From an archaeon (GTDB lineage: Archaea; Nanobdellota; Nanobdellia; Woesearchaeales; UBA9642): a DNA stretch of 59,420 nt. Within the stretch, counting starts at the first letter, position 1; every line of letters begins with the position of its first letter. The notes under the pieces are model-generated. The model saw only the letters and a list, made by a program, of their open reading frames with translations. It had not been told where the DNA came from and searched no databases. Of this stretch, positions 6,761 to 59,420 are shown in pieces. Location of the stretch: positions 1 through 59,420 of the forward strand of contig JAZDHK010000020.1 in assembly GCA_043806035.1 (NCBI GenBank). The letters are read 5' to 3'. The position numbers were made by a program, and so were the translations under genes.

Positions 6761-7936
6761 CTAGTGCCGCCTGACGATGCGATGGCGGCGTCTGCGCCTG
6801 ATGAGGACAAGCAGGAGGAAGATAAAGATGATGATCACGACGATAATGACAGTAGTCCAGGGGAACGCGCCCTGTGCTGTTGACTTGCTTACGTCCGTGA
6901 ACGCCTCGCCTTCGAAGGTCAGCTTGTTGTTGTAGCGGATCCTTCCCTTGATGATATTGTGTCCTTCCTCGGTGAGCTGGGCGAACGTATCGATGTTTGC
7001 CGTCTCTCCGGGAGGGACATCGACGGGTTCTGTACTGATGACGCTGATGATTTTTTCGTCGAGATTGATTGTTCCCTCGAACTTTGCCGAGACCGTTCGC
7101 TCGCCCTTGTTCCTGAAGACTGCCGTTATGGGAATGATCTGCCCTTGTTCTGCAACGAAGGGAGCATCAATTCTCACCAATTCTCCAACGTCAGTGATTG
7201 AGCCTCGCTCCACCACGTTCAGCTCGAGCAGGCTCTCCCCCCGACAGTCTGGCGTGCTCACGTCAACCCAGTATTGGCCGATCGCAAGGTTTTGCGGCAC
7301 GTACTTCCTGAATGACTGCTGTGTCGTGGGCAGTATTTCTGCATCTCCGACGATATCTTGGCTGAGGACGAGCGTCCGTTGCTCCTGATCCCAGACATTG
7401 ATGCTAATGGTCGGCCGTACGCGAACGTTGCCGTTGTTGTTAATGGAATAGAAGAACTCGAGGGGGAATCCGCTTTCGACATTCGGCAATGACGTGCTGG
7501 AGAGGTCGCAGCTCTTTATCTCATTGCCCACTATCTCGACCATGACGCGGATGATGAATGCTGCCTGCACGGAACTGCCATACTGGCCACCAGGTTTGCC
7601 GAGCGCTCCTGTCAGCACGCGGACGCTACCAGTGTAGTTGCCGTTTGCCGCATCGAGCGGAGGCTCAACGGCTATACGCAATATTTGCGGATCAGAGACG
7701 CTGAAGAAGAGCGTTACATTGTCGGGCAAGACTTTCAGCCAAGAGGCAATATCTCCCATCGTCTCATATTCGAGGCTGATGTTATAGGCGGAGTCTGTCG
7801 TGACAAAAACAGGTGTCTCCGCATATCCTCCTCTGAGCACCAAGGGGAAATCTATCACTGCCTTGTTCACACCTATGGCAACGGCATGTGCTACAGGGAT
7901 GAGAAGAACAAACAGGACAAGTAACCATTTCTTCAT
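6761..7936 (-). CDS. Secreted multi-Ig protein with C-terminal TM (DUF916/DUF3324-like)
   Basis: Signal peptide, ~3 beta-sandwich segments, NNGNVRVRP motif, TM followed by RRRRR tail. Confidence 0.65.
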   Translation of the reverse strand: MKKWLLVLFVLLIPVAHAVAIGVNKAVIDFPLVLRGGYAETPVFVTTDSAYNISLEYETMGDIASWLKVLPDNVTLFFSVSDPQILRIAVEPPLDAANGNYTGSVRVLTGALGKPGGQYGSSVQAAFIIRVMVEIVGNEIKSCDLSSTSLPNVESGFPLEFFYSINNNGNVRVRPTISINVWDQEQRTLVLSQDIVGDAEILPTTQQSFRKYVPQNLAIGQYWVDVSTPDCRGESLLELNVVERGSITDVGELVRIDAPFVAEQGQIIPITAVFRNKGERTVSAKFEGTINLDEKIISVISTEPVDVPPGETANIDTFAQLTEEGHNIIKGRIRYNNKLTFEGEAFTDVSKSTAQGAFPWTTVIIVVIIIFIFLLLVLIRRRRRHRIVRRH

Positions 7937-8429: not shown

Positions 8430-8448
8430 CCAAGAGCAATGCCTCTCC

Positions 8449-11400
8449 TCATGCTTGAGCAGTAAATACGACAATGCCTTCACAGCTGCCGTAGCTGCTC
8501 GTTGGTGCCTGCGCCTGCCAATACATGGTGTTCTGGTAGGGGCTGCTCTCATTATCTGTCGAGGGTATTTGGAAGTCTTGAATGACTTGCACTGAGCCGT
8601 TGATTGGTGTTTTTTCTGAGAATACTGAGGTGTTGGTGCTGAATCGTTGGAAGGACGAACTGATGTTGTTGTTCTGGCAGACGAAGCTCAGCCCGTCATT
8701 GATGCTGCTGCCATAGCCTTGCACGCTGACATGCAAGGGGACGTTACCCAGGTTGGTGATGTTTGCCATGACTTCTGCGCTGATATTGTCCGCCTCGATG
8801 TTGCCATAATCTATGCCTTCCGTGACATTCAATGCGTAGAGTTTATTCATAGTCACGGGTTTGACGCCATACGCGATGGCTGCAGAGTCAAGAGCGGTCA
8901 TGTTGCACCGCCACGTCCCGTTCTTGGCGACGTACCATATGCTGAAGGGGCAGCTACAGTTTATGCTCGTCAGCGTGTTATTAACACAAGAGCAGACAGT
9001 GGAATAGTGAAGTGTCACATTATCCGGGTCTGTAGGGCTGACCGTATCCAGATAGAATGTCGCATTGACGTTCTGAATGTCATCACGCCCGTTATCATCG
9101 GTCACCGTTGCGTTGCATTCGAGCGCTCGTGTCGTTCCCGCGTACAGGTCGATAGGGCTGAGCATGGCCATGCTGCTTAGGACAGGGGGGGAGTTATCTA
9201 TTTCCAGAAGGGAGGTAAGCGTGATATTCCCGTAGAATGTCGTCGGTCCAGAAATAGTCACGGTCCTGTTGCTGCTACCCCATGCGGCATTGTCCTGCTT
9301 GTCATAGCAGAGCACGTTCCACACGAAAGTAACGTTGCTGATGTTTGTTTGCGCGAACCAGTTCAGGCCTGAAGAGGCGTTCGCAAAACTCACGTTCGTC
9401 CAGCTGCCGGAGCTGTTCGTGTAGAGGGTGCAGTTGCTCGGGCTCACATCCGTCAACGTGTAGAAGAACGTGACGTTGCCGTCAGGATCGGTGTCATTGT
9501 CAAGAGGGGCGCGCAGCACCACTACTGGATTTTCCGTGTCTGCCGTGTACACATAATACCCTGACGTTCTCGTATTGCCCACGGTGTCTCTCGCAACAAC
9601 CCGCCAGTACCAGTTCTTGTTCGCTGCAAGGCTCACCACACTATACGTGTCCGTTGTGACGATGCTCTGGTCGATGCTGGAAAATGATGACGAATCATCG
9701 ATCTGGAGCGTGTAATTGCTGAAGTAGTCATCCGTACTCGGTTGCCAGGACAGGTTGATGGTGAGGTTGGAACTCACGGTCTGGTTGGGCGGGCTTGCAG
9801 GATTGAATGTCGAGGGAGGAGTGGTATCTATGGTTATCGTCCTCGTGCTGGAATTTGCTTCATTGCCTCCGCTGTCCGTGCAGTTCACACTCCACACGTA
9901 TATGCCCTGGGTAAGCGTTGCCGTAATGTTATTCCTTCCTGCTGTCGCTGCCTTGCTCGCATTCTTGGTATTGCTGAGGACGAGCCAGCACGTGCCCAAC
10001 GTGGAAGAATCGCTCACATTATAGAAGAAGGTGACGCTTGCATTCCTGTAAGAATCGTTGCCTGGGCTGTCGAGAACGACAAGTGGACCTTCTCTGTCGA
10101 TGATGAAATAATTTGTCCCGCTCTTGCCCAAATTGCCTGCAATATCGGTGCATGAGACGTTCCAGTAGTGCATGCCTGCCGTGAAGCCAGGCACACTCAC
10201 AGTATAGGGGGATGTGTTCGTCAACGCGTACGTGCCTATCTGCATATAGTCGATAATAACTGTGCAAGATGCGTTAGGGCTGTACACGTCCGTGAAGGAG
10301 AAGTTGAAGGTAAGTGTCGTATTCTGCGTCGTCATGTTTGGTGGAGCGTGCAACAGTATGGAAGGTGTTTGCTGATCGAGGATGATGAGCAAGCTGGTGT
10401 TTATTGCATTCTCTGCCTGATCAAGAACTTGCACCGTGATGTTGCGCACGCCACTTCCCGACAGGCTCACATTCTCCTGCACGGTAGAAGCATTCGTGAA
10501 ATTCCCTGAACGCTGGAATGCACCATCGACGAAAATGCTGTAGTTCAGCATGCTGCCCTTGTCATCCGTTCCTGTAAAGGAGAGGGCAATTGTCCCGTTT
10601 TTTGTCTGATTGCCCGGCTGCGGGCCGAGAATGGACGCGTTGGGCAGGACGGTGTCGAGCGTGAAGTTGCCAGGCAGAGAGGAGTTGGTGTTGTTGCTGT
10701 AATCCGTGCAGTTCACCCACCACGCATGCTGGCCTTCGCTCACAGCCGCCGTGAAATTGTTCACTCCATCATTGAGTATGCTCGTATTGTCTGTCGCAAA
10801 ATCACCGTCGATATAAAGAGTGCAGTTCATAACCGCGACTGCATCATGAGGAATGTACGAGAAGGCAACTGTGCTGTTCTTTGTCCAGGAATGCAGGGCA
10901 GGAAGGAGTAGGGTTGTGTTGGGAGGGGTGGCATCTGCAGTAATGTTGAACTGGCTGCCGTTATAGCCGATGAACGTGAGTTCTGCATGGGAGACTGCAC
11001 TGTAATTGGCATAGGATTGGTTCAAGGTGTTGAACACGGCAAATGCCAGTCCGCTCAGAGTGGTTGTATTTTGGAATCGTTGGACAAATCGTTGCTCTTG
11101 CCCCCCCGTTCCTGAAAGACCGGTTGTTGTGTTAAGATAACCGGTGAGGTTGACTTCATCCCAGCCAAAATAGTCATTCGTCGTGTGGGCTGCAGTCGTT
11201 GCGGAGGCAAACCTGACGAAGACGTTCTCCATGCAGGAAATGCCTGCGACTGAGCAGATGTCGCTCATGACGTATTCTGCGACGCTCGCCATGGCCGACC
11301 GCGATGCAGGAGTTGCACATCCTTCGCCTTGGGTGCAGTTGCTGATTTGCCTAAGCGTGTTGTCGTTGTCATAGACGAAGACGGCACTTCCTTCACTGGC

Positions 11401-14400
11401 AGTGTCCAGGCTGTATGCTGCTTGGTAGTAGCTCAGGTTTGCCTGCTGGCACGTAGTTCCTCCGCAGGCGCTCGTATTTAGCTTGAAATTGAGTCCGTCG
11501 TTCGCTGAATTCCTGTCCAGCCCTCCGCTTGCCTCAAGTCCTCGTGCACCTACGACGTTGACGTCGTTCGTTGAGCAGATGCCGTATGCGTTGCCCGCAT
11601 CTGTTTCCGTGCAATTGAAAAAACCATCCCAGGGAGTGCTGTTTTGGCACATCCTGTTGTAGGCATACTGGCAGGCGCCGTTGTCGAAGAGGAAGTCACT
11701 GCCTGCTTCGAAGCCATCATAGAATATGCTGTAGACGCCTCGTACGCTGGCATATTCTGGATCTTGCGCTTGGCTGTTATTATAATAGTACGTGTAATTG
11801 TATTCGTTGACGCTGTCATGGGTGGCATTTGCCAAGAACTTGATCAGGCAGAACGTCGCATCATCACCTGCAATAATCTCTACAGGGATCACTTCGCCCA
11901 GATGTGATACCACCCGGCTCTCATCGACGCAATTGCTGATGTTTCCCGAAAGATTGGTCATGTTCACTATGACTGGGACGAGAGCGAGATTCTCAGAAAG
12001 AGCGTTGCTCAGCAGTATGGGCTTTCGTCTGGCCCAGCTCACATTCCACCAGGGAATTGTTGAGTTTCCTTGAATGATGTCCGTTGTTACTGTAGCTCCT
12101 TGGATGGCTGAGCCGTACTGTCCCGTGACGTTCGTAGCGATGTTCGCGAACGATCCATATTCGTAGCTTTGCCTGTCCGTCGTAACAGAAACAAGTATCG
12201 TTGATGCTTCTTGCATGCTGAAATTGAACGTGCTGCTCTTGCCCGTATTTCCTGCACTGTCCAGACAGGTTATGTTCCAAAGATGGGTGGCGTTGCTGAC
12301 TGCCTTCGTGAAGGTGAGCGTCTCACCGACCTCTACTGATGTGTTGGCCTGCTGGAATGCACCATCAAGAAAGAAGCTGCAGTTCTGGAGCGTTGAGTCA
12401 TCGCTGACGACGTATTGGAAATTCACGGGATTAATGGATGTTGGGCTGTTGTTTGTTGGGGAGAGTAGCGTTATTTGCGGCGGCGTAACGTCCAGGACGG
12501 TGAGGAAGTGCGTCGCTGCTGCCTCAGTATAGTTCTCATTCTCGACGTACAGTGCCGTGATGTTGTACAGCCCAGGATATACGAAGATGCTGATGTTGGT
12601 CAGCGGGCTCTGGTCAGTCTGCACGAGCAAATCCTCGACATACAAGCTCACATTTCCTGAAGAAGGATCAAGAAGGATTATGGTGAGGTTTGCCGCAGTG
12701 TCTTCATTGATGCTTGCATTGCCGTCCGTGCCGTTCAAGGTGAGGTTGAGCAGTGTACTGTGCTTGTCCACTGTGTACATCGTGCTGTTGATCGTCAGTC
12801 TGCCGAGCGTGTCATTGGCATACCACCGCACTACGTACTGGCCGGGAATGATGTCAGTCGTGTTGTAGAAGAACAACGTGCCTTCCTGACTAGGTGTGTG
12901 ATTGCTGAATGGTCCCGAGAAGTTCTCTTCAAAAAGGACAGTATCAAGAAATGCATCCTCTATAGTGGCATTGAAGTGGAAGGCTTGGCCTGGACTGTAG
13001 ATTGCAGTATACGGCGTGTTTAGTGTAGACAGAAAAAGAGGTGCGTTCGCATCAACGTACACGGTCTGATTCTGTGTCCAGTTCTGCCAGCCTGCAGCAT
13101 CAACGCAGAGCACGTTCCACAGATAGGTGTTGTCAGGCAAGGTCACGTTGAGCACGTTTTCCGTGTCATTCACTGCCTCTGTCGTGATGTTTGGTCCGTA
13201 CACTTCTGAGAAGTTGCCATAGACGGTGCAGTTCCCCAAGTTCATGTCTACGGGTGTGAAGTTGAAGCCAACCAGTGACGTAGTGACGAAGGTTACGTCT
13301 TGCGGCGTGTGTACCTGCACGGTAGGTGGAGCAAGGTCTATGGTGAGCGTTCTCATATCGCTGAAGCCTTGCGTGTAGCTGCTGTTGTCTATGCACGTGA
13401 TATTCCATGCGTGCTCCTGTTCAGAGAGAGTGGTAGTGAAGGAAGACCATTGCCCGTTGATGACTGAGCTGTTTGTAAGTATGATAGCATCATCGATGAG
13501 GATGCTGCAGTTGGTGATACCGCTTGCATCAGTTGGTGTGTAGTTGAAGAACACTTGTGCAGTAGATGAGAAGTTGTTGTCAGGAGGCTCGTGAGGAATG
13601 ATGAACGGAGGATCGTATTCTATCGTGACAAGTACTGTCAACGTGTTAGCAGTACTGTTGCCGACAAAGCCTCTGCCGTCCGTGCAGTTCACGCTCCACG
13701 TGTGGATGCCGTTGGCGACGAAGACCGTGAAATTTTGGCTCTCACCCTCTGCTATGGATGTATCGGGAATGCCTGCTTGCACACCATCGACGATGAGTGT
13801 GCAGGAATCAACAGGAGACATGACATCCGTGACGTTATACGTGAAGAGTACGTTGTTCGTCGTTGTTTCAGAGCTTCCTGAAGAAGGAGCTTCGAGAGCA
13901 ATAATAGGCGCGTGTGTATCAACATAGAGTGTGTAGTTCTGCACAGCAAAACTGGTCAGGTCTGCAAAATCTGTACAGCGGGCATTCCACAAATAGATTC
14001 CATCAGAGAGGTTCACCGTGAAGAATGTGTACGTGTTGTTCTGGACTGACGTATTGGTCGCGTTCGCACCGAATGTCCCGTTGAAGTTTCCAAAGAGTGT
14101 GCAGTTGGCAATGTTTTCATCAATAGGAGTGATGTTAAAAAGCACCATTTCTGTCGTTTCGTACGAGTCAGGAAGGGGCGTGTTGAGCGTGACTGCAGGA
14201 GCGTTGATATCTGTTTTGTACGTGTAGTTTTGTGCGGCAGTCATGCTGGTAAAAACATCGTATGCACGGACTGTCCAATAATATGTCCTGTTCGGTAAGA
14301 GCGTGTCGTTCACCACATAGGACGTGTTGGTTATGGGTGTAAGAACATATGTTGTCGCATTGAAGAACGTGCTGTTCGTACTGACAAGTAAAGTGTAGTT

Positions 14401-17079
14401 GGCAAATGTCTCGTCTGACGTCTGCTGCCAGGTAAGGTTGGGGTTGAGGTTGGCGCTGACCGTCTGATTTGGGGGGGTGAGCAGGGAGAATGCTGCAGGA
14501 GGGCTGGCAAGCACGGTGAACGTAAGCGATGCATACGTCGTGATGTTGGTGTTGCCGGCAAGGTCGATAGCGTACACGGAGCTGACATTGTACAGTCCCG
14601 TGACATTCGTCTTGGTAATATTTGCCAGCCATGCAGTGCCTGCCTGCGTCAGAGTGATATTTTCTGTCGTGCTGTTGGGATAGCGCAATGTGGCATTGAC
14701 CTGGCTGGCGCCTTGTACCGTAACATTCAATCTGACCTTGTGTGATTGGTTGATGCTTGACTCATTGAGGGTTGCTGCAGTGATTGCAGGGGGAATGGTG
14801 TCGATGACGAATGAGTAATTACTTGTGTAGAATGCCGATTGCCCGAACCAGTCCGTGCAGTTCACGTTCCACACGTACGTGCTGTCCGGCAAGGTCAAGG
14901 TTATGTTCGTCAGCGTATTGTTGGAGACGTTCGTTATCGTCTCGTTAGGCGCCCACGCTTCCGAAAAATTTCCAAAGAGTGTACACGTCAGATTGCCATC
15001 GTCGTGGATTGCCGTGAAGTTGAAATCAGTAACATTCACGTTCTTGTAGCTGTCATTCTGCGGGTAGGAGAGGTTGGCGATGCTTGGCGGGAAGGGCTGC
15101 TGTTCAGTATAGCCGTTTACATAATAGTCTTGGGTGTTGTGCAGGATGATTTGTTGGAAGGTCTGGTTTTCGTCAAGGGCAGTAAGTTCTGTCGGTGTCT
15201 GGAAATTTCTGATGCTTGCGTCAGCATACCAGTCATTGCTGCTGCCCACCATACGCACCTGTCCTCGGGATATGCCGTTTCGTTGGCTTCGCCTGATGAG
15301 GATTGCGTTATTCGCTTTGCTGCTCGAGCTGCTCGTGACATTCGTGTCAATCCATGTGCTGAGATTATTTTGAGAGATATCTATGGGGTTGTCAAACAGG
15401 ACAACGGGAGCCGTACTTTTGAAGTAGCCAAGGATGAGAAAATAACCCGTCGCTGCACTACGATACGCATCGACGCTGTTGCTGTTCTGCCTGACAATGG
15501 AGAAGTATTGGCCGTTGGCGATGCCTTGGCTTGTCGACCATCCTGAAGCTGTTCCTTGTGGGCGTACTGCAATGGTATTTCCATTTGCACCCGTCATGAG
15601 CTTCATGATGAGTCCTTTTGCGCTGGACGGCACCCAGGCATTCACGTTGAGGGTCTGCCAACTTCCCGTTCCTGCATAAAGACTGGTGATATTCACCTGA
15701 TTATCGAAAAGAACGACCTCTTCGTCCGTGTAGCCAAGCAGATAAATTTTTCCTGCGACAGTGTCGATGATGCCTTCGAGATGTCGTGCTGCACTGATGG
15801 GTGTTATGGTGTACTGCATGCCATCCGCAAGGATGTAATCCTTGTTCATGGAATAGAAATCATCTGTGCTGACTGGTGATTTTGCGAGGACACGGATGTT
15901 TCCCGTATTCGTGTTCAACAAGGCAAGGACAACACCCGTCGCTCCCTCGGGAACGTAGCTCGAGACATCAATATCCGTCCACGCATCTATTCCTGCAGGA
16001 GTTATGTCGATGTAGTTCTTGAACAGTACTAGCCCTGAACTGCCTGCCATGTTGTGCGCGTATGCCGTGTACGGCCCGAAGGTGAATTCGAGATGGTGCC
16101 TGCCTGGCGTGAGCACGGTGCTGATTTCTTGGCCGGTTTCGTTACAAGAATAGTCATTAACAAAAATGCCGTCAGCCGTCTGCGTTGCAGGAATTTCTTG
16201 CCTACCGCACATGATTCTGACAAAGGAAAGATCACGTACAAATGACGTGCCATCCACTGCACGTATGCTCAGATTCTCTTTCCCTGTGGTGTTGAAGAAG
16301 ACTGTCCAGTTCCCTCCTACAAGAGGATAGCTCTGTACGTTGATGATGACGATGTTCGTTTCTGCAAAGATAGTTCCGGGTTGAGTAAGTTCGAGCGTGT
16401 ACGTCTGTCCTGGGACGATGTCTTTTATTTTTGTCCATGACGTGCATTTGCCGGTGCATTGCCAGACTTCCGTACCTGCAGCGGTGATGTTGAAGAGTGC
16501 AGAGGAGTATCGTGCGTTCGTGTTGAGCGAGAATGCCCGCTCGATTCTACGGTGAGGCACGGATGCGGGACTGATGTCCTGCTGTTCCACGCTCACCTGC
16601 GTGCCGTTCGCGAAGCGCATATCGTTGATGATGACGCTATTGACGGGAATCCCGACAGATGCACAAACGGGAAGGCACGGTTGTGCGATGACTGACGTGT
16701 CTTTTGCCGTGAAGGAGAACTGGTCACTGCGTAAGAGCTCTACATGGTCTGCCCTGAACGGATACTGCTGGTCGAGAAAGAACAACACGCCTGCTGTGCT
16801 TGCGATAAGGAAGAGCAGGATGATAACGAGCTGCCATGCAGTCAACCCTCTTTTCTTCTGCTCGAGCTTGCTCAGTTCTTTCTCGCAGCGTTTCAGCTGC
16901 CTGTCGTACAAGCTCATCCAGTATTTTGGGCTTTTCCCTCCAAGATCCCGCTTGATCTGCTGCTTGTATTCTTTTGTCGAGAGTTTGCCTTGCTTGTGGA
17001 GTTCGGCGAGTCGAGTGGTGTGGGCGTGCACTTGTTCTTTGTAGTGCTTGATGAGTTGTTGCTTATGGTGTGCGTCCAT
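8449..17079 (-). CDS. Giant surface protein (2876 aa) with Ig-like repeats, DUF2341-like module and C-terminal family A domain
   Basis: Basic N-terminus plus TM; many D..PP..L..P..CxL..W.V.C.D repeats; WWNVSWARRKPI; C-terminal LYALNVTEGIDYG..CEGIVVFTAQA. Confidence 0.85.
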   Translation of the reverse strand: MDAHHKQQLIKHYKEQVHAHTTRLAELHKQGKLSTKEYKQQIKRDLGGKSPKYWMSLYDRQLKRCEKELSKLEQKKRGLTAWQLVIILLFLIASTAGVLFFLDQQYPFRADHVELLRSDQFSFTAKDTSVIAQPCLPVCASVGIPVNSVIINDMRFANGTQVSVEQQDISPASVPHRRIERAFSLNTNARYSSALFNITAAGTEVWQCTGKCTSWTKIKDIVPGQTYTLELTQPGTIFAETNIVIINVQSYPLVGGNWTVFFNTTGKENLSIRAVDGTSFVRDLSFVRIMCGRQEIPATQTADGIFVNDYSCNETGQEISTVLTPGRHHLEFTFGPYTAYAHNMAGSSGLVLFKNYIDITPAGIDAWTDIDVSSYVPEGATGVVLALLNTNTGNIRVLAKSPVSTDDFYSMNKDYILADGMQYTITPISAARHLEGIIDTVAGKIYLLGYTDEEVVLFDNQVNITSLYAGTGSWQTLNVNAWVPSSAKGLIMKLMTGANGNTIAVRPQGTASGWSTSQGIANGQYFSIVRQNSNSVDAYRSAATGYFLILGYFKSTAPVVLFDNPIDISQNNLSTWIDTNVTSSSSSKANNAILIRRSQRNGISRGQVRMVGSSNDWYADASIRNFQTPTELTALDENQTFQQIILHNTQDYYVNGYTEQQPFPPSIANLSYPQNDSYKNVNVTDFNFTAIHDDGNLTCTLFGNFSEAWAPNETITNVSNNTLTNITLTLPDSTYVWNVNCTDWFGQSAFYTSNYSFVIDTIPPAITAATLNESSINQSHKVRLNVTVQGASQVNATLRYPNSTTENITLTQAGTAWLANITKTNVTGLYNVSSVYAIDLAGNTNITTYASLTFTVLASPPAAFSLLTPPNQTVSANLNPNLTWQQTSDETFANYTLLVSTNSTFFNATTYVLTPITNTSYVVNDTLLPNRTYYWTVRAYDVFTSMTAAQNYTYKTDINAPAVTLNTPLPDSYETTEMVLFNITPIDENIANCTLFGNFNGTFGANATNTSVQNNTYTFFTVNLSDGIYLWNARCTDFADLTSFAVQNYTLYVDTHAPIIALEAPSSGSSETTTNNVLFTYNVTDVMSPVDSCTLIVDGVQAGIPDTSIAEGESQNFTVFVANGIHTWSVNCTDGRGFVGNSTANTLTVLVTIEYDPPFIIPHEPPDNNFSSTAQVFFNYTPTDASGITNCSILIDDAIILTNSSVINGQWSSFTTTLSEQEHAWNITCIDNSSYTQGFSDMRTLTIDLAPPTVQVHTPQDVTFVTTSLVGFNFTPVDMNLGNCTVYGNFSEVYGPNITTEAVNDTENVLNVTLPDNTYLWNVLCVDAAGWQNWTQNQTVYVDANAPLFLSTLNTPYTAIYSPGQAFHFNATIEDAFLDTVLFEENFSGPFSNHTPSQEGTLFFYNTTDIIPGQYVVRWYANDTLGRLTINSTMYTVDKHSTLLNLTLNGTDGNASINEDTAANLTIILLDPSSGNVSLYVEDLLVQTDQSPLTNISIFVYPGLYNITALYVENENYTEAAATHFLTVLDVTPPQITLLSPTNNSPTSINPVNFQYVVSDDSTLQNCSFFLDGAFQQANTSVEVGETLTFTKAVSNATHLWNITCLDSAGNTGKSSTFNFSMQEASTILVSVTTDRQSYEYGSFANIATNVTGQYGSAIQGATVTTDIIQGNSTIPWWNVSWARRKPILLSNALSENLALVPVIVNMTNLSGNISNCVDESRVVSHLGEVIPVEIIAGDDATFCLIKFLANATHDSVNEYNYTYYYNNSQAQDPEYASVRGVYSIFYDGFEAGSDFLFDNGACQYAYNRMCQNSTPWDGFFNCTETDAGNAYGICSTNDVNVVGARGLEASGGLDRNSANDGLNFKLNTSACGGTTCQQANLSYYQAAYSLDTASEGSAVFVYDNDNTLRQISNCTQGEGCATPASRSAMASVAEYVMSDICSVAGISCMENVFVRFASATTAAHTTNDYFGWDEVNLTGYLNTTTGLSGTGGQEQRFVQRFQNTTTLSGLAFAVFNTLNQSYANYSAVSHAELTFIGYNGSQFNITADATPPNTTLLLPALHSWTKNSTVAFSYIPHDAVAVMNCTLYIDGDFATDNTSILNDGVNNFTAAVSEGQHAWWVNCTDYSNNTNSSLPGNFTLDTVLPNASILGPQPGNQTKNGTIALSFTGTDDKGSMLNYSIFVDGAFQRSGNFTNASTVQENVSLSGSGVRNITVQVLDQAENAINTSLLIILDQQTPSILLHAPPNMTTQNTTLTFNFSFTDVYSPNASCTVIIDYMQIGTYALTNTSPYTVSVPGFTAGMHYWNVSCTDIAGNLGKSGTNYFIIDREGPLVVLDSPGNDSYRNASVTFFYNVSDSSTLGTCWLVLSNTKNASKAATAGRNNITATLTQGIYVWSVNCTDSGGNEANSSTRTITIDTTPPSTFNPASPPNQTVSSNLTINLSWQPSTDDYFSNYTLQIDDSSSFSSIDQSIVTTDTYSVVSLAANKNWYWRVVARDTVGNTRTSGYYVYTADTENPVVVLRAPLDNDTDPDGNVTFFYTLTDVSPSNCTLYTNSSGSWTNVSFANASSGLNWFAQTNISNVTFVWNVLCYDKQDNAAWGSSNRTVTISGPTTFYGNITLTSLLEIDNSPPVLSSMAMLSPIDLYAGTTRALECNATVTDDNGRDDIQNVNATFYLDTVSPTDPDNVTLHYSTVCSCVNNTLTSINCSCPFSIWYVAKNGTWRCNMTALDSAAIAYGVKPVTMNKLYALNVTEGIDYGNIEADNISAEVMANITNLGNVPLHVSVQGYGSSINDGLSFVCQNNNISSSFQRFSTNTSVFSEKTPINGSVQVIQDFQIPSTDNESSPYQNTMYWQAQAPTSSYGSCEGIVVFTAQA

Positions 17080-31945: not shown

Positions 31946-31949
31946 GGTT

Positions 31950-32666: not shown

Positions 32667-32680
32667 GTTCCCATCTCCGT

Positions 32681-38867: not shown

Positions 38868-38871
38868 GAAC

Positions 38872-40706: not shown

Positions 40707-40730
40707 GCCAAAATGTTCGGCATGGCTGCT

Positions 40731-41822: not shown

Positions 41823-41855
41823 CGAGGTCTTGGCAAGCAGGACTATTTTAAAAAA

Positions 41856-45036: not shown

Positions 45037-45040
45037 GGTT

Positions 45041-45721: not shown

Positions 45722-45722
45722 G

Positions 45723-49286: not shown

Positions 49287-49378
49287 GTCATTCACCTCTT
49301 CCTCGACGGACACTGTGCGTTTGAGCTTGCATCCTTTTTCTTCCTCATAATAAAACAAGGAACGTTTATGTAAATTAA

Positions 49379-50653: not shown

Positions 50654-53600
50654 TCATACGATCTCATAATATATGTCTACGGTTGTTTTGGTTATGTTCT
50701 TGTAGCTCCGCAGCAGGACAGGTATGCTTATTTCGAAGCTGTAGTTGCCGTACTTTCCTGGCTTGACTCCTTCTGCGGTCGTCACGAAGATGAGATCCTG
50801 CGACCCATTATATTGGGTGTTGCCATCCCCTTCATCCCACAAAATGCCCGTTTCAAAATCTGAGCTGTTCGTGCTGTTCCGTACAGGAATGGAGAAGATG
50901 GTTGTGTCAAAGCTTGTGATGTTCATGATTGCATGTGGCAGCCCGTTCTGCGTGAATGATGTGTTGATGCTGTCGAGGAACCCTGTCATGTTCAGGGCAG
51001 CGTCTGCTTCCTCGAAATCATCGGCGACGTATGCATCGCTTGTCGTTCGAGACAGGGCGCGCAATGACGTCCAGGTAATATTTGCATCGCTCTCAGTTAC
51101 GTATATATTGGAGGGCTTGTCGCTGGCATTCCACAAGAGCATGCTCTCTGCCCCTTTCACCACTATGCTCGTGTTTAATCCACCATAATAGATGTGCCAA
51201 GCGTCGATGTCGATACGTGCAAACGCTGCGTTGTTGCTCTCGTTGTTCTCGAGGAATGATCCGTTCTGGTCGACAGGGGGGTCGACGTGGACGTGGATGA
51301 AGAAGGGCCCTGGTCCGGGAACTTGCCAAACGGTGACAGCCGTCACATTCGATAGGTTGCCGCTCACGTCAGTGATATTTAAGTCAGTGATATTGTCAAT
51401 CAGCACACCTCCTGCTGCAGGGTCTCCTTGATAGACGTGCACGCTAACATTCTCGGCATCAGATCCTCCTCGGTTGAAGATGTTGGCGAAAATGGTAATG
51501 TTTTGCCCTTCAGCAGGAGAAGTGTTGCTGAACGTGATGTTGCCTGGCGTGATGACGAAGTCAGGAGGGATGATAGTAATATTCCATGTTTCTGATGCAC
51601 CTACATTCCCAAACGTGTCGGTGCAGTTCACGCTCCAATTGTGCGTGCCCCCGATGGGAATGCGCGGATAGAAATTACTTACTTGCCCCTCGATGATGGG
51701 GGGATAGGAGTTTGCTTCGATGTTTCCATCGACGACAAGTGAGCAGTTTGCTATGTCGCTCAAAGAATCGTTGACTTTGTAAGAGAAGGTGACTGAACTG
51801 TTGCTCTCGCTGCCGCTCGACGGATCGTTCAGCGTCACGTTCGGCGGGGTTTGGTCAGCGATGAGGGTGAATGTGCTCGCCCCTTGTACAGGATAATGGC
51901 TGGGTCGTGTTGCAAGAGAAACGGCGCTGAAGAGTCCTGAGCTTAAGAGTGTTGGTGTCCAATTCCAGTCAAGCAGCCCATCACTGCCTGTCTCTTGTGT
52001 CGAGGAGCGATTGATGAATTCCTCGACGCTTGCAGTCGTGCTCGTGATGTCCGGATCGTATCGCTTGTAGCCGGTGATGTTGATGGCGTCCCACGCAAAG
52101 TAGTCATTATTGGCGTGAGCTCGTACATTTGCAGAAGTGAATCTGAACGTGAGTGCACTGTCGCAGTTGATGCCACTAATCTCACACACGTTGGACTCGA
52201 CAAATTCTGCCGAGGCGGACATGGCAGTTCTTACACCTGCCTCACAGCCTTCTAAATCCATGCAGTCAGAGATGAGCACCAATCCACTGTCGCTGTCGTT
52301 GACGAAGACGGCACTTCCTTCCGCAGGAGTAGTCGTATCGAGAGAAAATCCTGCCTGCCAGTAGGAGATGTTGATGTCCTGGCATGCTTGTCCTCCACAG
52401 GCAGTTGCGTTTGCATCATAGTAGAGGCCATCAGCATTGTCCGTGTTCCTGTCCAGGCCTCCTCTGGCCTCGAAGCCTCGCACGCCCGATTTTGCGATGT
52501 CGTTCGTAGAGCATATACCATATGCTGTGCTCGCCTCTGACTCGACACAGTCAGTAAAGTCTCCCCACGGGCTGCTGTCACCGCATTCTCTTGTGCCATC
52601 AACAGGGCATGCTCCTGCAGTGTAGAGGAAGTCGCTGCCCGCCTCGAAGTCCTCCCAGACAAGCTGATATCCCTGAATAGGCAGTGTATAGGAAGGGCTT
52701 CCCGCTGCCGAATTATCATAGTATACGTAGTAGTTGTGCTCGTTGCTCGCGCTTGCAGTGACGTTCGCCGTAAAGCGTATGCTACACCACGTGCTGCCAT
52801 CTCCATCCTCAATCACGAAAGGAACTTCATCAAGATCAATAGAGACTATCCTGAGTTCGTCGCAGCTGCTGATGTTGCCTGCAAGCTCGGTGATGTTCAT
52901 ATAGACGGTTGTGTCCGTTTTGTTTGCCGATTGGCTATTTGTTAGAAGTATGGGCTTGCGTCTTGCCCAGCTCAGATTCCACCAGAATCCTGACGCGTTT
53001 CCTTTGATGATGTCTGTCGTGACATTCGTATCAAGGGGATTGCCGTAGAAGCTAGTCGTGTTTGACGTTACCAGGATGGGTTCGGCTAGCTGGTCGCCAA
53101 CTTCATATGTCGGCTTGTCCGTTTTCACGGAAATGTTCGTTATGTTCTTTATATCGATGGTGAAATTTCTCTGATTGCTTTGCCCTTCGAAAGATAGTAC
53201 ATCAGTGCAGTTCACGCTCCAATTGTACAGACCATTCGACAATCCAAGAAGTGCAAAGCTCATCGTCGTGTCCCGCACAACAGAGGTATTCGTCTGGTTC
53301 AGGGCATAGTTGATGATAAGCGAGCAGTTCTGCAGCAAACTGGCATCTTGTACAACGTATTGGAAGAGGACATCCCCTGAACCAAATGTTGTAGAGGGTG
53401 CTGGCGAGAGCAGCGTGATGTTCGGCGGGTTATTGTCTATGGTTATGTTCTCGTGACTGTCGTAGCCGCCGAGGTTGCCTAAGGTGTCGTTCGCCTGCAC
53501 ACGAACCTCGTATGCGTTGCCGTCAGGAAGCCCAATGATTGGCCAGGAGCAGTTCTGCGTCGCATTGCATGCGTTTATCCATGCGGCACTGGCATTCTCG

Positions 53601-56600
53601 CGATACTCGTAACTGTACATGTCAATGCTGCCTATCCCTTCATCGGTGGCTGATGCGTTGAGCATGGTTTCAGAACCCGTGATGTTCGCGAATGCAAGCG
53701 GGAGGAGGAGCGTCGCGTTCGGACCAGTACTGTCGATGACGAACGTTCTCGTTGCAGAGCTGTTCTCATTGCCCAAAACATCTGCACAGTGAACAGTCCA
53801 AGAATAATTTCCATCTGCCATCTCGTCCACGGTGAAATTGTTTGGCTGCAAGGGGATGATGGAGCTGTTCGTCTGGTTAACTGATCCATTGATGAGCAGA
53901 GAGCAGTTCTGGATGCTGCTGAGCGCGTCGGTGACGTTGTAGACAAAGGTCATGTTTGGGTTTACTGTGAACAGACTGTCGGACGGCAGCATGAGTTGTA
54001 TCTGCGGTGGAGTTCTGTCGAGGGTGATGTTCGTGTGCACGTCAGCTGTTCCCGTATTGTTGAGTGTGTCGTTCGCAAACACGCGCACTTCATACGTGTC
54101 AGCGTCGGGAAGTGCACTCACATTCCAAGAACAGTCATAAAGTGGCGTATCGTCCGTGCAGATGCTCGTCCAGCTGCTTGAATCATTTTGGCGGTATTCG
54201 AACCAGATCATGTCGATAAGGCCTATACCTGCATCGCTTGCAGATGCATTCACTTGAAGATCGTTTGCCGAGCTATTGGTGAAAGACAAGGGAAGATCGA
54301 GCATGACAGTAGGCCCGGCATTGTCTATGCCCACAAGTACCCACGTGCTGTCTGACAGGCCAAGGTCATCGGTTACGGTGAGTCGCATATAGCATGAGAG
54401 ACTGTTGTTCTGGCATTGGTCCTGCAATGTCGTATTCCATGTACACGTGTCGCTCGAGCAGATTGTCGTCGGGCTCGAGAATGCTGTGGTGTTGTCGAGC
54501 TCCCACGCATATGCAATGAGGGAGCCGTCACTGTCCGCGCTTGCTGAGGCATTAAGCGTGGTGTTGCTGAATAGCCAGGACGTGTTTTCCGGCAACGTGA
54601 TGATTGCGTATGGAGCGTCGTTGACGCTGACATTCTGACTTGAAGAAAAGACGGTTGCGCTGTTACTTCCTCTTGCCTTGCAGCGTACAGGCCACGTGTG
54701 GTTTCCTTCTCCTGCAGTAATGGAAAAGTTGGCAGTACATGTGCTGTTGTCCTCCTGCTGCACGGATTGGTTCTGTTCCGCTTCTATGCTCACTGTCGGA
54801 GGATTCTGGCTGAGCAGGCTCACCTTAATGTCGTCCCAGTACGCGTACTGGTAGGCGGCGACACCATATCCTCCAGTTGTGTACGTCGTGTCTGTCGCAC
54901 TCAGATTGCCCCAAGATGCAAGCGAGGCATCAAAGACCTGCAAAGTGATGGTGCCATTGCTATGCCACCACACCTTGAGGTAGTACCAGTTATTTGCCGC
55001 AACGCTATTTTCTGTCGAGGTCGCCAATGGACTGCCACTGTCATAGTCCTTGCGGATCTGCATGGGTGAGGATCCGCCCGTGCTCGATCGCTGATCAACT
55101 AGAACTTGGTAGCCGCATCGCTCAGGATTGGCGCAGCCGCTGTTCGCGCCGAAGGTCAATGCAGCGAGAGAAGTTGTGGAACTGGTACGGGGCATAACCC
55201 ATCCTTCGATGAGGAAACCACTATCCAACGTTGTGCTGGTGACCGCGCGGTAGTAGCTAGCACCCCCATACCCGTCAAGACCGTAGCTACCGCCATGGGC
55301 ACTTGCTCCATTAACCGTTGGATTGAGACTACCTTGCGAGAAGTCATGGGCCTGATCTTCGAAATCCTCAAAAAGATAGTAGATAGCACTCAAGTTCTGT
55401 GGCGGCGTGCCTGATGATACATTGCCGTAATACAGGGCATATGCCGTGCTTGATTCGGGAATGTCGTCTTGCAGCTTGAAGGCAATGCTGGTAGTGCTAG
55501 TATTGCAAGCGCTTACATTGATTCGGTCAAGCTCAATGTTGGAGCCACCATTCCAATAGACCACACGCAGGTCGTCGCAGTCCGCCTGCAACTTGTCCTG
55601 GCTCACTAAGGACTCCGTATCAACAGAAATGTTGAGCGTGTACCCTGCAGGCAGGTCCTGCCCCTCGTTGTTCGTGATATTTATGGTCTGACGGTAGGGA
55701 TAACTGGCATTCCACCACGTCGATGCTTGAGACGTGAGGTTACCGCAGGCATAGCTGGAGATGTTGCTGACAAGATCGGTAGTTGAAGGAGTGATGTCCG
55801 TAAACGTGCCGGTGTCGTACTGTGCAAAGAGCGTGGTGTTCTTGCACTCCCCTCCTGTGCTCAGGCAGGTAACCATACAGGTCTGTACATAAGTTCCTGT
55901 CGTTTCGTTGATAGTGATAGTATCAACAGGTGCAATCATGGTCGTATTTAATTCTCCTCCCGCAGAGACCGTGAACGTCAAACCGACGGCAAGGATATTG
56001 ATGTTACCTGCGTTGTCGATGGCGATGGCTTTCGTCCAATTGTACGTGCCGGAGAAGATGAGCAGGTAGTTTGTGCTGAAGATGCCGTCTCCGTTGGTTG
56101 TATCACAACCTGTCGTTTCATTGTCGAGAAAGGTGATGTTTATGGCCTGCTGTCCTGGTCGCTTAATAGTGGCGAGGATAGAGGAGATGCCGGAACTGCT
56201 CGACTCATCAGTCAAGCCGACATTCTGTTCTGCCCCCACAAATATTGTCGGCTCGCTTCCCGCCAATTTTTTGACGATGACGTTATCGAAGAGCAATGGA
56301 TTGCTATAGGATAGCAGACCTAGACCTCCTCCACTCTGCCAATACGCAGGACCCGTGTTCGAAATATACCTGATGCCATCACGAGACATGTTGATGGTAT
56401 CTCCTAACGCACGTATTTCAAAGTCGTACCACGTATCCGTATTAAATGCGGTGTTATCACTATCAATTTGTGCATATCCTCCATCCCAGCGTCGATAGCC
56501 AACTGTGTTTGTCCCTGTGCGCAGGTCGCCGATGAGTGCGAGGTGCTGGTCCTGGCTCGTCCCTTGCCGTCTGAACAACGTGCCGCCGAAGGGTATGCCT

Positions 56601-59420
56601 GAACCGCTAGCGAGCAGCATGCGGAAGGAGATGCTCACGTTCGTCCATGTCGAAGGATTGCTCGTCACCCATATGCGATCGTAGCCAGCGACGGTATCTT
56701 GTGCGCGCAGGACGTTGGATTCGTTGCTGTACACTTCCCAGGTTCCGCTTCCGACAGTCCATGCTGAAGGTAATGCGCCAGGCGTGTCCTGTTCAAAATC
56801 ATCATAGAATAAGTAGACCTTGGCTGTGTCTGTCTGGGGGGCAGGTGCAGAGGGATTACCATAATAGAAATAGTAATTGCCGTCGCTGTCATTGATGCTC
56901 GTGTTCGTCGAGAAAGAAATGATGGCGCTGGAACTGCTCAGGGATGTTTCATTGTGCCAATCACGTGAGATGAATGAGCCATTATTGTAGATGATGCGCA
57001 GATCGCTGCCATCCGAGAGCATCTTTCCTGAGGAGATAAGCTGTGCGCCGTTGATGGTGATGCTTACCGTGTAGCCGTCGGGCAATGCTACCGTATCTGT
57101 ATTGGTTATGGTGATTTTCTTGCGATAGCTCCAGTTACCATCCCACCAATCATCGACGACGTCACGGGAGCGAACGTGCATGCAGACATACTGATTAACT
57201 TCAAAGAGCGTGTCGTTGATTTCGGGTTCGCTTAGCGAGGGTGGTGTGACATCAACACCCACGCTTTGCTGTTGGGTCGTGTTCGTCTGGTTGTTGCTGC
57301 TGTTATCCGTGCAAGTAATGCTCCAATTCCAAACGCCCGTGTCCAATGCGTAGGTGAAGTTCAAGAGAGCGTCTTCAATAGGGTGGAGTGTCGTGTTGAC
57401 GATAACATCGTCAATGAGTAGACTGCAGTTCTCAACACCGCTGCCAACATCAGTGACGTTGTAGAGGAATGTGACGACAGTGGTGTTGATCCATGCCTGA
57501 TCTGCGGGATCGATGAGCGTTATGGTCGGTACGTCCGTGTCGTTGCAGACGCACGCACTGTCTTGGCATGTTCCCGTCAGTGTCCCGCAGTCAAGGTCGC
57601 ATTCTGTGTCAGCACAATAGGCGGGGGCGCTACCGTTCCAGATATCGCCGAGGGAGAGTGTGTCCACGAGTATGGTGGTTATGCCTTCGCTGCAATCGTC
57701 TGAACGGTCTGTCGGTGTAAGGCCCGTGTCATAATAGAGCGTTCCTTCATCTGCACAACTGTCCATGCAGCTGGCATTCGGTTCGGGACTGTACTGCCCA
57801 GAGTGGTTGCCTGTGGCGTTGCAGAAATCACAATAGTCTGCAAACAACATGCCTGATGAGGTCATGTTTGCGCCAATGCCATCCTCACAGATAGGGCTGA
57901 AGTAGCACACGTCCTGCGTTGCTGGACTCGCGCGTATTGTCCACGCGCATGTTCCTCCATCGCTGTCGTTGATGCAATAGATTGGTGATTCTTCTGTATT
58001 CTGGCTGAACGTGCACGCGTCGTTGCATGCCTTGTCATAATAGCATGTGCCTTCCGAGAGGTTTGCCATAAGATTTGTTGTACTATCGCATGCTGCACTG
58101 CAGCCGATATCGCACTGAGAAAATATCGATCCGCAACTCCCTTCCCCTGCATAGATGTGCCCGGTGCAGTTCGTCCATGGTCCCGTGCAGCCGCCGCTGG
58201 TGCCGTTGACGCAGGTTTGTGCTGATGCAAAGTATGCGCAGTACTCTCCAGGATGAGTAGTCGCATTTTGTATTGCAGGATCATTGAGGTCAGGACAGTC
58301 GGTGAGGTTCACCCAGGTGTTGTCTGGAGCGCAAACTTTGTAGTCGTTACTGTCCGCTGCCCCGCAGAGCTTGTAGGTTGCGTCGAAGGTGTTGCCGCTG
58401 TTGTTGAAGACGCACTGCGTGTCCGTCTGCGTACAATACCAGCCGTGGAATGAGAATGAAGAATCGTTGACGCAAAGAGCAGTGCTGCCCGCCCCTGTCC
58501 TGCATACTTCGTTGTCGTTGCTGCCGCCATAGGCGAGTCCTGAGCAGGTGTAGCCGGGAATGACATCATCAGAGCATGCTTGGAGAATGTTGCAGTATTG
58601 CGCTGCAGGACAATCAAGATGCGTATCGCAGAGCAGAGTTACGTTCATGGTTGTTGGTTGCATGTTCTGCACACCGCTCGTGTCGTTGCAAGCCATGAAG
58701 AGCAATTGGTTGCCCATGGACAAGTTCGTTGAATACGTGCACATTTTTGCCACAGCTTGCTGGTAGGATCCACAATTCACCCGATTATTGATGACCATTT
58801 GCGTGTAGTTTTCGCTCACGTTGCTCAGATAGCATGTTGCGTTCTCGTTCAGCGTGACGTTGATGTCTGGCGTCTCGTCAGCCGTAGTGTATTCGGAAGT
58901 GGTGTCTCCTCCGACGCTGTTGATGGTGATGATAGGGGGGGTGTTGGTTATGGTGAGCGTGCTTGTGGCACTGGTTGCATTGTTTGCGTTCGTTGCTGTG
59001 CAGAGTGTCCTGAACCCTGCCGTTCCTGATGGATGAACAGTTACGTTGAAGGTGTACGTTGCTGACGTCGCGCTTTTGTCCAGGAATCCTACTGCGTAGC
59101 TGGAGACATTCGTTACAGCAGTCAAGCCTGTTGTTTGCGTCACTTGCCAGCTGCCTGAGCTGTTGTCCTGTATGTAGATGAACGCATCGCCGACAGGAAT
59201 TTTTGAACTGGAGACAGTGCAGTTTCCGGAAAGGATAGTGAATGAGCTTTGATTAATGGCCGTTGGCGAGAGAACACTAGCTGCTGTCATTGATGACTGG
59301 TCCGCGTATGACCACGAGGAGAGGTTGGCGAGGAAGATGTCGACATTTTCGCTTGAGAGTAAAACCTCACTGTCCGTGTACCTGTCTTCCTGGATGTACG
59401 GCAAGACCGTGCCTGCAAGG
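50654..59420 (-). CDS. Giant surface protein (>2900 aa, 5' end beyond window) with three DUF2341-like modules, PKD/CARDB/Ig-like repeats and C-terminal family B-like domain
   Basis: Frame open to the window edge; WWDGNWSYRKKI, WWNASYPYRQTI, WWNLSWARRKPI; Cys-rich region; ENNESNN; C-terminal WHIYYG..YSFEI..DIYYEIV. Confidence 0.85.
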   Translation of the reverse strand, partial: LAGTVLPYIQEDRYTDSEVLLSSENVDIFLANLSSWSYADQSSMTAASVLSPTAINQSSFTILSGNCTVSSSKIPVGDAFIYIQDNSSGSWQVTQTTGLTAVTNVSSYAVGFLDKSATSATYTFNVTVHPSGTAGFRTLCTATNANNATSATSTLTITNTPPIITINSVGGDTTSEYTTADETPDINVTLNENATCYLSNVSENYTQMVINNRVNCGSYQQAVAKMCTYSTNLSMGNQLLFMACNDTSGVQNMQPTTMNVTLLCDTHLDCPAAQYCNILQACSDDVIPGYTCSGLAYGGSNDNEVCRTGAGSTALCVNDSSFSFHGWYCTQTDTQCVFNNSGNTFDATYKLCGAADSNDYKVCAPDNTWVNLTDCPDLNDPAIQNATTHPGEYCAYFASAQTCVNGTSGGCTGPWTNCTGHIYAGEGSCGSIFSQCDIGCSAACDSTTNLMANLSEGTCYYDKACNDACTFSQNTEESPIYCINDSDGGTCAWTIRASPATQDVCYFSPICEDGIGANMTSSGMLFADYCDFCNATGNHSGQYSPEPNASCMDSCADEGTLYYDTGLTPTDRSDDCSEGITTILVDTLSLGDIWNGSAPAYCADTECDLDCGTLTGTCQDSACVCNDTDVPTITLIDPADQAWINTTVVTFLYNVTDVGSGVENCSLLIDDVIVNTTLHPIEDALLNFTYALDTGVWNWSITCTDNSSNNQTNTTQQQSVGVDVTPPSLSEPEINDTLFEVNQYVCMHVRSRDVVDDWWDGNWSYRKKITITNTDTVALPDGYTVSITINGAQLISSGKMLSDGSDLRIIYNNGSFISRDWHNETSLSSSSAIISFSTNTSINDSDGNYYFYYGNPSAPAPQTDTAKVYLFYDDFEQDTPGALPSAWTVGSGTWEVYSNESNVLRAQDTVAGYDRIWVTSNPSTWTNVSISFRMLLASGSGIPFGGTLFRRQGTSQDQHLALIGDLRTGTNTVGYRRWDGGYAQIDSDNTAFNTDTWYDFEIRALGDTINMSRDGIRYISNTGPAYWQSGGGLGLLSYSNPLLFDNVIVKKLAGSEPTIFVGAEQNVGLTDESSSSGISSILATIKRPGQQAINITFLDNETTGCDTTNGDGIFSTNYLLIFSGTYNWTKAIAIDNAGNINILAVGLTFTVSAGGELNTTMIAPVDTITINETTGTYVQTCMVTCLSTGGECKNTTLFAQYDTGTFTDITPSTTDLVSNISSYACGNLTSQASTWWNASYPYRQTINITNNEGQDLPAGYTLNISVDTESLVSQDKLQADCDDLRVVYWNGGSNIELDRINVSACNTSTTSIAFKLQDDIPESSTAYALYYGNVSSGTPPQNLSAIYYLFEDFEDQAHDFSQGSLNPTVNGASAHGGSYGLDGYGGASYYRAVTSTTLDSGFLIEGWVMPRTSSTTSLAALTFGANSGCANPERCGYQVLVDQRSSTGGSSPMQIRKDYDSGSPLATSTENSVAANNWYYLKVWWHSNGTITLQVFDASLASWGNLSATDTTYTTGGYGVAAYQYAYWDDIKVSLLSQNPPTVSIEAEQNQSVQQEDNSTCTANFSITAGEGNHTWPVRCKARGSNSATVFSSSQNVSVNDAPYAIITLPENTSWLFSNTTLNASASADSDGSLIAYAWELDNTTAFSSPTTICSSDTCTWNTTLQDQCQNNSLSCYMRLTVTDDLGLSDSTWVLVGIDNAGPTVMLDLPLSFTNSSANDLQVNASASDAGIGLIDMIWFEYRQNDSSSWTSICTDDTPLYDCSWNVSALPDADTYEVRVFANDTLNNTGTADVHTNITLDRTPPQIQLMLPSDSLFTVNPNMTFVYNVTDALSSIQNCSLLINGSVNQTNSSIIPLQPNNFTVDEMADGNYSWTVHCADVLGNENSSATRTFVIDSTGPNATLLLPLAFANITGSETMLNASATDEGIGSIDMYSYEYRENASAAWINACNATQNCSWPIIGLPDGNAYEVRVQANDTLGNLGGYDSHENITIDNNPPNITLLSPAPSTTFGSGDVLFQYVVQDASLLQNCSLIINYALNQTNTSVVRDTTMSFALLGLSNGLYNWSVNCTDVLSFEGQSNQRNFTIDIKNITNISVKTDKPTYEVGDQLAEPILVTSNTTSFYGNPLDTNVTTDIIKGNASGFWWNLSWARRKPILLTNSQSANKTDTTVYMNITELAGNISSCDELRIVSIDLDEVPFVIEDGDGSTWCSIRFTANVTASASNEHNYYVYYDNSAAGSPSYTLPIQGYQLVWEDFEAGSDFLYTAGACPVDGTRECGDSSPWGDFTDCVESEASTAYGICSTNDIAKSGVRGFEARGGLDRNTDNADGLYYDANATACGGQACQDINISYWQAGFSLDTTTPAEGSAVFVNDSDSGLVLISDCMDLEGCEAGVRTAMSASAEFVESNVCEISGINCDSALTFRFTSANVRAHANNDYFAWDAINITGYKRYDPDITSTTASVEEFINRSSTQETGSDGLLDWNWTPTLLSSGLFSAVSLATRPSHYPVQGASTFTLIADQTPPNVTLNDPSSGSESNSSVTFSYKVNDSLSDIANCSLVVDGNIEANSYPPIIEGQVSNFYPRIPIGGTHNWSVNCTDTFGNVGASETWNITIIPPDFVITPGNITFSNTSPAEGQNITIFANIFNRGGSDAENVSVHVYQGDPAAGGVLIDNITDLNITDVSGNLSNVTAVTVWQVPGPGPFFIHVHVDPPVDQNGSFLENNESNNAAFARIDIDAWHIYYGGLNTSIVVKGAESMLLWNASDKPSNIYVTESDANITWTSLRALSRTTSDAYVADDFEEADAALNMTGFLDSINTSFTQNGLPHAIMNITSFDTTIFSIPVRNSTNSSDFETGILWDEGDGNTQYNGSQDLIFVTTAEGVKPGKYGNYSFEISIPVLLRSYKNITKTTVDIYYEIV

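Follow-up and report, generated by a model that had tools for sequence, protein, structure and literature searches.

The window analysed here is an entire contig (C20, 59,420 nucleotides) of a 1.50-Mb Woesearchaeales genome in 42 contigs (G000; completeness 93.7%). It encodes two families of small secreted proteins, termed A and B, together with very long proteins that end in domains of the same kinds, membrane proteins that accompany each family, and putative regulators (Table 1). An earlier reading of this DNA, here called the original prediction, proposed that three A and five B proteins are subunits of a single surface filament or lattice displaying giant adhesins. All eight small proteins were found, each with a signal peptide, and a heuristic search of their sequences placed a C-terminal membrane helix in none of them (0/8). 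They contain cysteines and dense sequons, as had been proposed: the A proteins carry 6-7 cysteines each and 6.2-8.7 sequons per 100 amino acids (aa), the B proteins 2-4 and 3.8-5.5, compared with 0-0.8 sequons in two cytoplasmic controls. Identity is 50-62% among the three A proteins and 31-61% among the five B proteins, and the comparison of A with B found no homology. None of the eight matched Pfam at E<=0.01, and none of the three small subunits checked matched NCBIfam. Several true starts of the small B genes lie downstream of the listed open reading frame (ORF) starts. Family B is large, with representatives of 1,344 clusters at E<=0.001. Subunit homologs with names come mostly from Woesearchaeota or Nanoarchaeota records; the few other labels may reflect mis-binning. 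The literature searched held no published description of this system.

Table 1. Features of the two modules, of the ATPase-linked base and of accompanying genes
Feature	Coordinates	Strand	Basis or remark
A1, family A subunit: N-terminal arm (mature 1-24) and two predicted beta-sandwich domains	20693..21670	-	AF2, arm conservation, fold searches
A2, family A subunit	19614..20546	-	
A3, family A subunit, last gene of the ArsR-B-B-A operon	30977..31945	-	
G1, 2876 aa: basic N-tail, transmembrane segment at ~residue 77, Big-type Ig repeats, internal arm-like strand, C-terminal A module	8449..17079	-	
M1, 610 aa: signal peptide, Ig domains, arm-less C-terminal A module	17741..19573	-	
A partner, 391 aa: signal peptide, Ig-like domains, C-terminal transmembrane segment, basic tail	6761..7936	-	
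B1, family B subunit, beta subtype: arm 1-42, core 43-214	31950..32666	-	AF2, tree
B2, family B subunit, alpha subtype	32681..33397	-	tree
B3, family B subunit, beta subtype	46310..47014	-	tree
B4, family B subunit, beta subtype	47722..48438	-	tree
B5, family B subunit, alpha subtype, first B gene past the giant	48519..49286	-	tree
G2, >2921 aa: Ig, DUF2341 and CARDB domains, arm-less B-prime C-terminus	50654..59420	-	N-terminus beyond contig end
B partner, 597 aa: CWB2-like N-terminal half, Ig-like domains, transmembrane segment, zinc ribbon	29132..30925	-	
B-domain/transmembrane/HerA-ATPase fusion, 1582 aa	G000:C29:32755-37503 (= L192:3256-8004)		B profile hit; same genome, different contig
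B-prime-tipped giant, 7055 aa	G000:C29:40944-62108		
ArsR/MarR-like helix-turn-helix regulator, directly upstream of B-alpha genes	33394..33984	-	Pfam
Double-helix-turn-helix regulator, directly upstream of a B-beta gene	47011..47484	-	Pfam
318-aa cytoplasmic protein, weak DUF5752 match	49593..50549	-	Pfam
920-aa Ig/FN3 membrane protein accompanying A loci	22002..24764	-	Pfam
623-aa Cys-rich membrane protein with Gly linker, accompanying A+B loci	25126..26997	-	
Third-family small exported protein, 229 aa	26979..27668	-	

In the AlphaFold2 (AF2) monomer model of A (predicted local distance difference test, pLDDT, 94), residues 1-24 form no strand and are followed by two beta-sandwich domains. 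This arm has an alternating N-V-T-V-x-T-x-V-N-I-T pattern, with 83-99% conservation at the inward positions. In the B model (pLDDT 87), confidence is high for the core, which starts at ~residue 43; residues 1-40 are modelled at pLDDT ~60 and are almost strandless, yet conserved (P3, G5, I8, G29, F/I31, T33, and Q41). In the predicted monomers of both families, a conserved amphipathic N-terminal arm is thus left unpaired. Mean-field coevolution connects the arm to the C-terminal strand in both families. For B (496 sequences, effective number Meff 439), the T6-V211 coupling ranks 18, adjoining the C93-C138 disulfide at rank 17, and for A (193 sequences, Meff 166) the K9-S291 coupling ranks 12; in either case pairing within a chain and pairing between chains give the same signal. 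Further B couplings are D26-K46 (rank 16), T30-K46 (rank 23), and T25-P206 (rank 33).

The long proteins end in the same domains, as the original prediction had stated. In G1 and M1 the C-terminal part is an entire A module (32-37% identity, E 1e-23 to 5e-44). In 11 of the 13 long A proteins that were anchored, the last strand of an immunoglobulin (Ig) domain, judged by eye, leads directly into the A module with no arm between them; three further rows could not be anchored. The C-terminal domain of G2 has 20% identity to B and was missed by the B profile; along with 25 C-termini like it from relatives, it makes up a conserved subfamily, B-prime, which is homologous to B (hhalign probability 98.7, E 3.9e-16). 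Since B-prime aligns to B only from residue 43, where the confident B core starts, the B-prime giants lack the arm. At 19 of 24 inspected start regions, these giants open with a short hydrophobic, signal-like segment. M1 is a candidate acceptor-only tip and G2 a candidate acceptor-only tip adhesin. The original prediction needs revision for G1, which is no plain tip. Its basic N-tail of 77 aa is long and cytoplasmic, ahead of a membrane segment, and in G1 as in a relative with the same layout (G073, 4152 aa) an additional strand appears by eye to be inserted in register with the arm. G1 is a candidate membrane-tethered stalk or base. An arm that is unpaired, absent from the B-prime giants, and coupled to the C-terminal strand would fit the donor-strand signature of WxL and chaperone-usher pili.

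Co-inheritance was assessed in 151 genomes of the phylum, the same set being searched with each profile. Hit thresholds were placed post hoc at visible gaps (strong A, E<1e-30, next best 3e-10; strong A partner, E<1e-90), and the related genomes in the counts are not independent. The A profile had hits in 30 genomes, 21 of them strong, and a long A-terminated ORF is present in 19 of the 21. Strong hits of the A partner fall in exactly these 21 genomes, including both without B. Family B was found in 47/151 genomes, with up to 9 B matches per genome. The B partner is single-copy and gave strong hits in 47 genomes (46/47 B genomes and 1/104 others), and full-length B-prime, in most cases the last domain of ORFs that span 1,400-7,600 aa, occurs in 36/47 B genomes and 0/104 others. 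The co-occurrence expected by the original prediction is therefore borne out by the profile searches, but its single system is not: 19 genomes have both A and B, 28 lack strong A but have B, and 2 lack B but have A. A and B are two unrelated, separable modules. Because A is co-inherited with one membrane protein and B separately with another, each family has its own single-copy partner, and the membrane Ig chaperone once proposed for the whole tracks A only. The B partner had not been named in the original prediction.

The A partner is a candidate chaperone, ElrE-like in architecture only. It had been named DUF916-like, which was not upheld, since PF06030 matched 0/11 members of its family and nothing in the genome; weak CARDB Ig matches occur in 5 of the 11 members and weak Wzt_C Ig matches in 3. 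The B partner is a candidate chaperone or anchor. It matches Cwp6 (5j72, E 1.5e-7), and PF04122 is weakly matched in 4/23 members of its family. The CWB2 repeat anchors Clostridioides surface-layer proteins. Outside the strong set, weak A-like matches (E 1e-4 to 1e-9) were seen in G035:C109, G074:C44, G036:C28, G081:C14, and G106:C3, of which those in G035 and G074 adjoin weaker A-partner hits. These are probably more distant paralogous systems.

A B profile hit on contig C29 of the same genome, beyond the stretch that the original prediction covered, revealed a protein that starts with a membrane segment and a B domain, continues with Ig domains and another membrane helix, and ends with a HerA/FtsK-type ATPase followed by weak DUF5752 repeats. 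Its 560-aa ectodomain begins with the B domain and aligns to B residues 24-212 (probability 99.4, E 3e-21), and its gene lies 3.4 kb upstream of the gene for a 7055-aa B-prime giant. The B motif and Walker A share a single ORF at 15/20 loci inspected. By its sequence, the ATPase belongs to the HerA/FtsK superfamily (PF01935, E 4.8e-7, 30.5 bits versus a cut-off of 23.2). The ATPase family occurs in 30/151 genomes, namely 19/19 A+B genomes, 3/28 B-only genomes, and 8 B-negative genomes. In six B-negative ORFs inspected, the ATPase is C-terminal to a giant of 2,000-6,400 aa (or longer) that has no B domain. We presume the ATPase to be the anchor of a long surface element, in a single chain or, in A+B genomes, via B subunits. 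The ATPase is probably not required for B assembly, because most B-only genomes lack it. DUF5752 is also matched weakly by the 318-aa protein of the window; genes like that of the 318-aa protein lie between giant and B genes in relatives.

The reading we prefer, with a probability of roughly 60%, is that the two co-regulated modules each build a donor-strand fibre that has an acceptor-only tip and a membrane partner of its own, and that the B fibre is rooted on the ATPase fusion. Subunits would be Sec-exported, probably N-glycosylated, and held by the single-copy membrane partners until hand-over. Polymerisation would proceed by insertion of the N-terminal arm of each subunit into the next, more distal subunit, until arm-less versions cap the tip (M1-type for A, B-prime giants for B). 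In A+B genomes, a half-arm B-domain membrane protein with a cytoplasmic HerA/FtsK-type ATPase would root the B fibre. Large Ig-repeat proteins would thereby be carried at the tips of thin surface fibres. Attachment to a host or surface is suggested by two things, the symbiotic lifestyle of the lineage and the Ig, DUF2341, and CARDB domains of the cargo.

The layout resembles that of WxL and chaperone-usher systems, as the original prediction had recognized. According to the available part of its description, the Elr/WxL pilus of Enterococcus faecalis has an acceptor-only tip and a membrane Ig protein as chaperone; its donor strand pairs antiparallel with the strand at the acceptor's C-terminus, a pairing given as the norm for Elr/WxL and chaperone-usher pili (bioRxiv 10.64898/2026.10.17.759780). 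The same part reports the WxL system as Bacillota-only, with no mention there of DPANN or Woesearchaeota (bioRxiv 10.64898/2026.10.17.759780). As far as that description extends, the shared features are a monoderm host, small Sec subunits, an amphipathic N-terminal arm that is unfolded in the monomer, long cargo proteins with an arm-less domain copy at the end, and a single membrane-anchored Ig-like partner, which here is co-inherited with each family. The logic closely matches that of the Elr/WxL pilus, and a sequence-family match is absent. PF13731 (WxL) had 0 matches in the genome at E<=1, with a positive control in Lactococcus, and with PF06030 also unmatched we rejected membership of the system in WxL/DUF916. 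By language-model features, no named family comes closer to A than the WxL cluster (0.76), which serves as a lead only. Differences from Elr/WxL are the additional complete Ig domain of A, the lack of relationship between A and B, and the ATPase-linked base; no sortase-type terminator was seen in the present system.

Likeness to chaperone-usher pili (Csu, Fim, and CFA/I) lies in the arm-less tips, the inferred donor-strand logic, and the top Foldseek matches of the A model. These were the two-domain tip adhesins CsuE (E 5e-6), FimH, and CfaE-CfaB, and in the Atlas a Csu-type cluster matched A at a template modeling score (TM) of 0.64. VIA alignments describe A domain 1 as a generic Ig domain and do not single out pilins. 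To our knowledge, an outer-membrane usher would not be expected in a monoderm archaeon. Pam pili, in the accessible text of their description, donate an internal linker strand and are reported only in bacteria of the candidate phyla radiation (CPR) (PMC13278184). They share with the present system restriction to a symbiont lineage, two-domain disulfide-containing Ig pilins, two subunit types per operon, and putative chaperones, again as far as that text goes (PMC13278184). The small A and B proteins carry the arm N-terminally, which sets them apart from Pam pilins as described in that text; G1-type giants carry the arm-like strand internally. The archaeal Abp bundling pili, threads, cannulae, and Tafi are built, in the portions of their descriptions available, from secreted subunits that are often glycosylated and are linked through donation of an N-terminal strand, and cannulae are described there as assembling without a chaperone. 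We know of no giant tips or ATPase base in Abp, threads, cannulae, or Tafi, and A and B profiles matched no solved chain at useful E-values, those of archaeal strand-donation filaments included. Strand-exchange pili as a type are already known (chaperone-usher, Elr/WxL, Pam, and archaeal Abp/thread/cannula/Tafi). New here are the unclassified subunit families, the archaeal symbiont lineage, the CWB2-like partner, and the ATPase-linked base.

Gene order and regulation bear on whether long fibres are formed at all. As the original prediction noted, A and B genes share an operon (30977-33984), with an overlap and gaps of 14 bp and 4 bp between successive genes. In 15/15 A+B genomes with mapped loci, an A gene comes immediately after a B gene, and the conserved order is giant, small cytoplasmic protein, B-alpha, B-beta, A. 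Such a fixed order, together with two old B subtypes, is what a complex of defined stoichiometry would have, and it could point to closed short hetero-oligomers; seated on the membrane partners, these would act as a dock or hub into which giants and ATPase plug by the shared domain, without any long fibre. Many B-only loci have exactly two B genes, and giants of 1,400-7,600 aa would already supply the reach. However, the number of B matches per genome rises to 9, dedicated regulators stand next to single B genes, and an arm and a core in one subunit permit open-ended chains, as in ElrD. We regard closed oligomers as unlikely, and long donor-strand fibres remain our preference.

Two regulators accompany the subunit genes: the ArsR-like cluster, ahead of B-alpha copies, occurs in 14 mapped genomes and the double-helix-turn-helix cluster, ahead of B-beta copies, in 18. 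The promoter motifs that the original prediction considered shared are partly ordinary archaeal TATA boxes, judged by eye. One motif stands: the palindrome GTATAC, often just past the TATA box, lies upstream of system genes in 31/135 regions versus 19/335 others (Fisher p 2e-7, uncorrected and for the best 6-mer, with kin genomes that are not independent and a few overlapping loci counted more than once). It is found upstream of 10/15 copies of the ArsR-like gene. The enrichment suggests a shared operator.

The ATPase raises another alternative, in which its hexamer organises B protofilaments into a tube or channel that imports DNA or other macromolecules from a host or prey. Like CedD/TedD, type IV coupling proteins, and HerA, the fusion has intact P-loop (Walker A, GxxGxGK[ST]) and Walker B (hhxDEVH) motifs after a membrane helix. 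It is weakly similar to HerA, CedD, and TraC, and most family members share 52-79% identity over 330 aa, suggesting a conserved function. Unlike those proteins, it carries the large ectodomain that starts with a B domain. Its scores with the CedD/TraC/HerA equivalog models are 18-24 bits, far under the curated cut-offs of 567-850, the loci yielded no multi-pass channel protein, and the ATPase also ends B-less giants elsewhere and was not found in 25/28 B-only genomes. A conduit would be compatible with fibres, and we consider it quite improbable. Two side observations concern this part of the system. Single-chain giants of 2,000 to >6,000 aa that end in a transmembrane segment and a conserved HerA-type ATPase occur at L220-L226 (G001, G071, G125, G061, G102, G107, and G077), six of them in genomes without B. 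In B-only genomes, secreted proteins of ~540 aa, in which a B-like domain at the N-terminus precedes a Cys-rich linker and Ig domains, are encoded directly after the CWB2-like gene (L053:12794-14320, L054:4039-5649, L062:6908-8542, and L066:6753-8390); they are possible ATPase-free counterparts of the base.

The small subunits have none of the three marks of archaeal S-layer proteins that were looked for (C-terminal transmembrane helix 0/8, Pfam family 0/8, NCBIfam 0/3), which a lattice held by a separate anchor would be compatible with. An S-layer-like two-dimensional glycoprotein lattice of A and/or B, anchored by the membrane partners and decorated by the giants, would suit sequon-rich, unanchored secreted proteins with several paralogs and the CWB2-like region of the B partner, but it is quite improbable with B in only 47/151 and A in only 21/151 genomes, and the arm-less terminal forms and the couplings of arm to C-terminal strand fit a linear, polar assembly.

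Donor-strand fibres of this kind would bear on how DPANN archaea find and hold their hosts. Thin filaments have been seen on DPANN cells and are unassigned in the available text of that report (PMC11329633). The parts that the present analysis names for Woesearchaeota comprise two families of subunits with their partners, the tips, a putative shared operator, and an ATPase-linked base. If the fibres are as we propose, the range of chaperone-guided strand-exchange pili would come to include an archaeal symbiont lineage whose sequences are unrelated, the WxL type being reported as restricted to Bacillota in the part of its description cited above. A further-reaching and rather doubtful possibility is that B is the subunit of a new class of strand-exchange filament, a host-gripping organelle with adhesin tips of 150-800 kDa and an ATP-coupled root, a transmembrane HerA/FtsK-type ATPase that has a B subunit as its ectodomain. 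ATP coupling could then mean powered assembly, retraction, signalling, or uptake; the B apparatus would be the modular counterpart of the single-chain giant-transmembrane-ATPase proteins in B-less relatives, and about a third of the sampled Woesearchaeota-containing phylum would have such an organelle.

Other genes lie in and around the window. The cluster of the 920-aa membrane protein was mapped in 13 genomes, every one with A, and that of the 623-aa membrane protein, which has no Pfam match, in 10. In relatives, the duplicated GWNL...GYW domain of the third family also stands at the end of giants that measure 1,900-6,400 aa (third-family coordinates L026:18632-19321, L039:6578-7267, and L035:4344-5033), and by eye a short strand following the membrane segment resembles the A arm. 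Between subunit genes lies a cluster (38836-46229) that we take from its sequence to be glycosyltransferase-like; it includes two exported thioredoxin/DsbA-like proteins (44323-45721). Its products could glycosylate and oxidise the subunits. A protein with ATP-cone, Mrr-type nuclease, and helix-hairpin-helix parts (34339-35151) is encoded directly upstream of the ArsR-B-B-A operon. Positions 1-4000 have a GC content of 34-37% versus ~49% elsewhere, adjoin an integrase-like gene (4040-4846), and encode what we presume from sequence to be a helix-turn-helix protein and a UvrA-like ABC ATPase; horizontal acquisition of this patch is likely. Another integrase-like ORF (PF00589, 17063-17512) is located between G1 and M1. 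Additional giant ORFs (2,200-6,700 aa), none with an A or B domain at the end, lie on contigs C5, C13, C30, and C33 of the same genome, and those on C5 and C13 have a long basic N-tail ahead of the membrane segment, as in G1.
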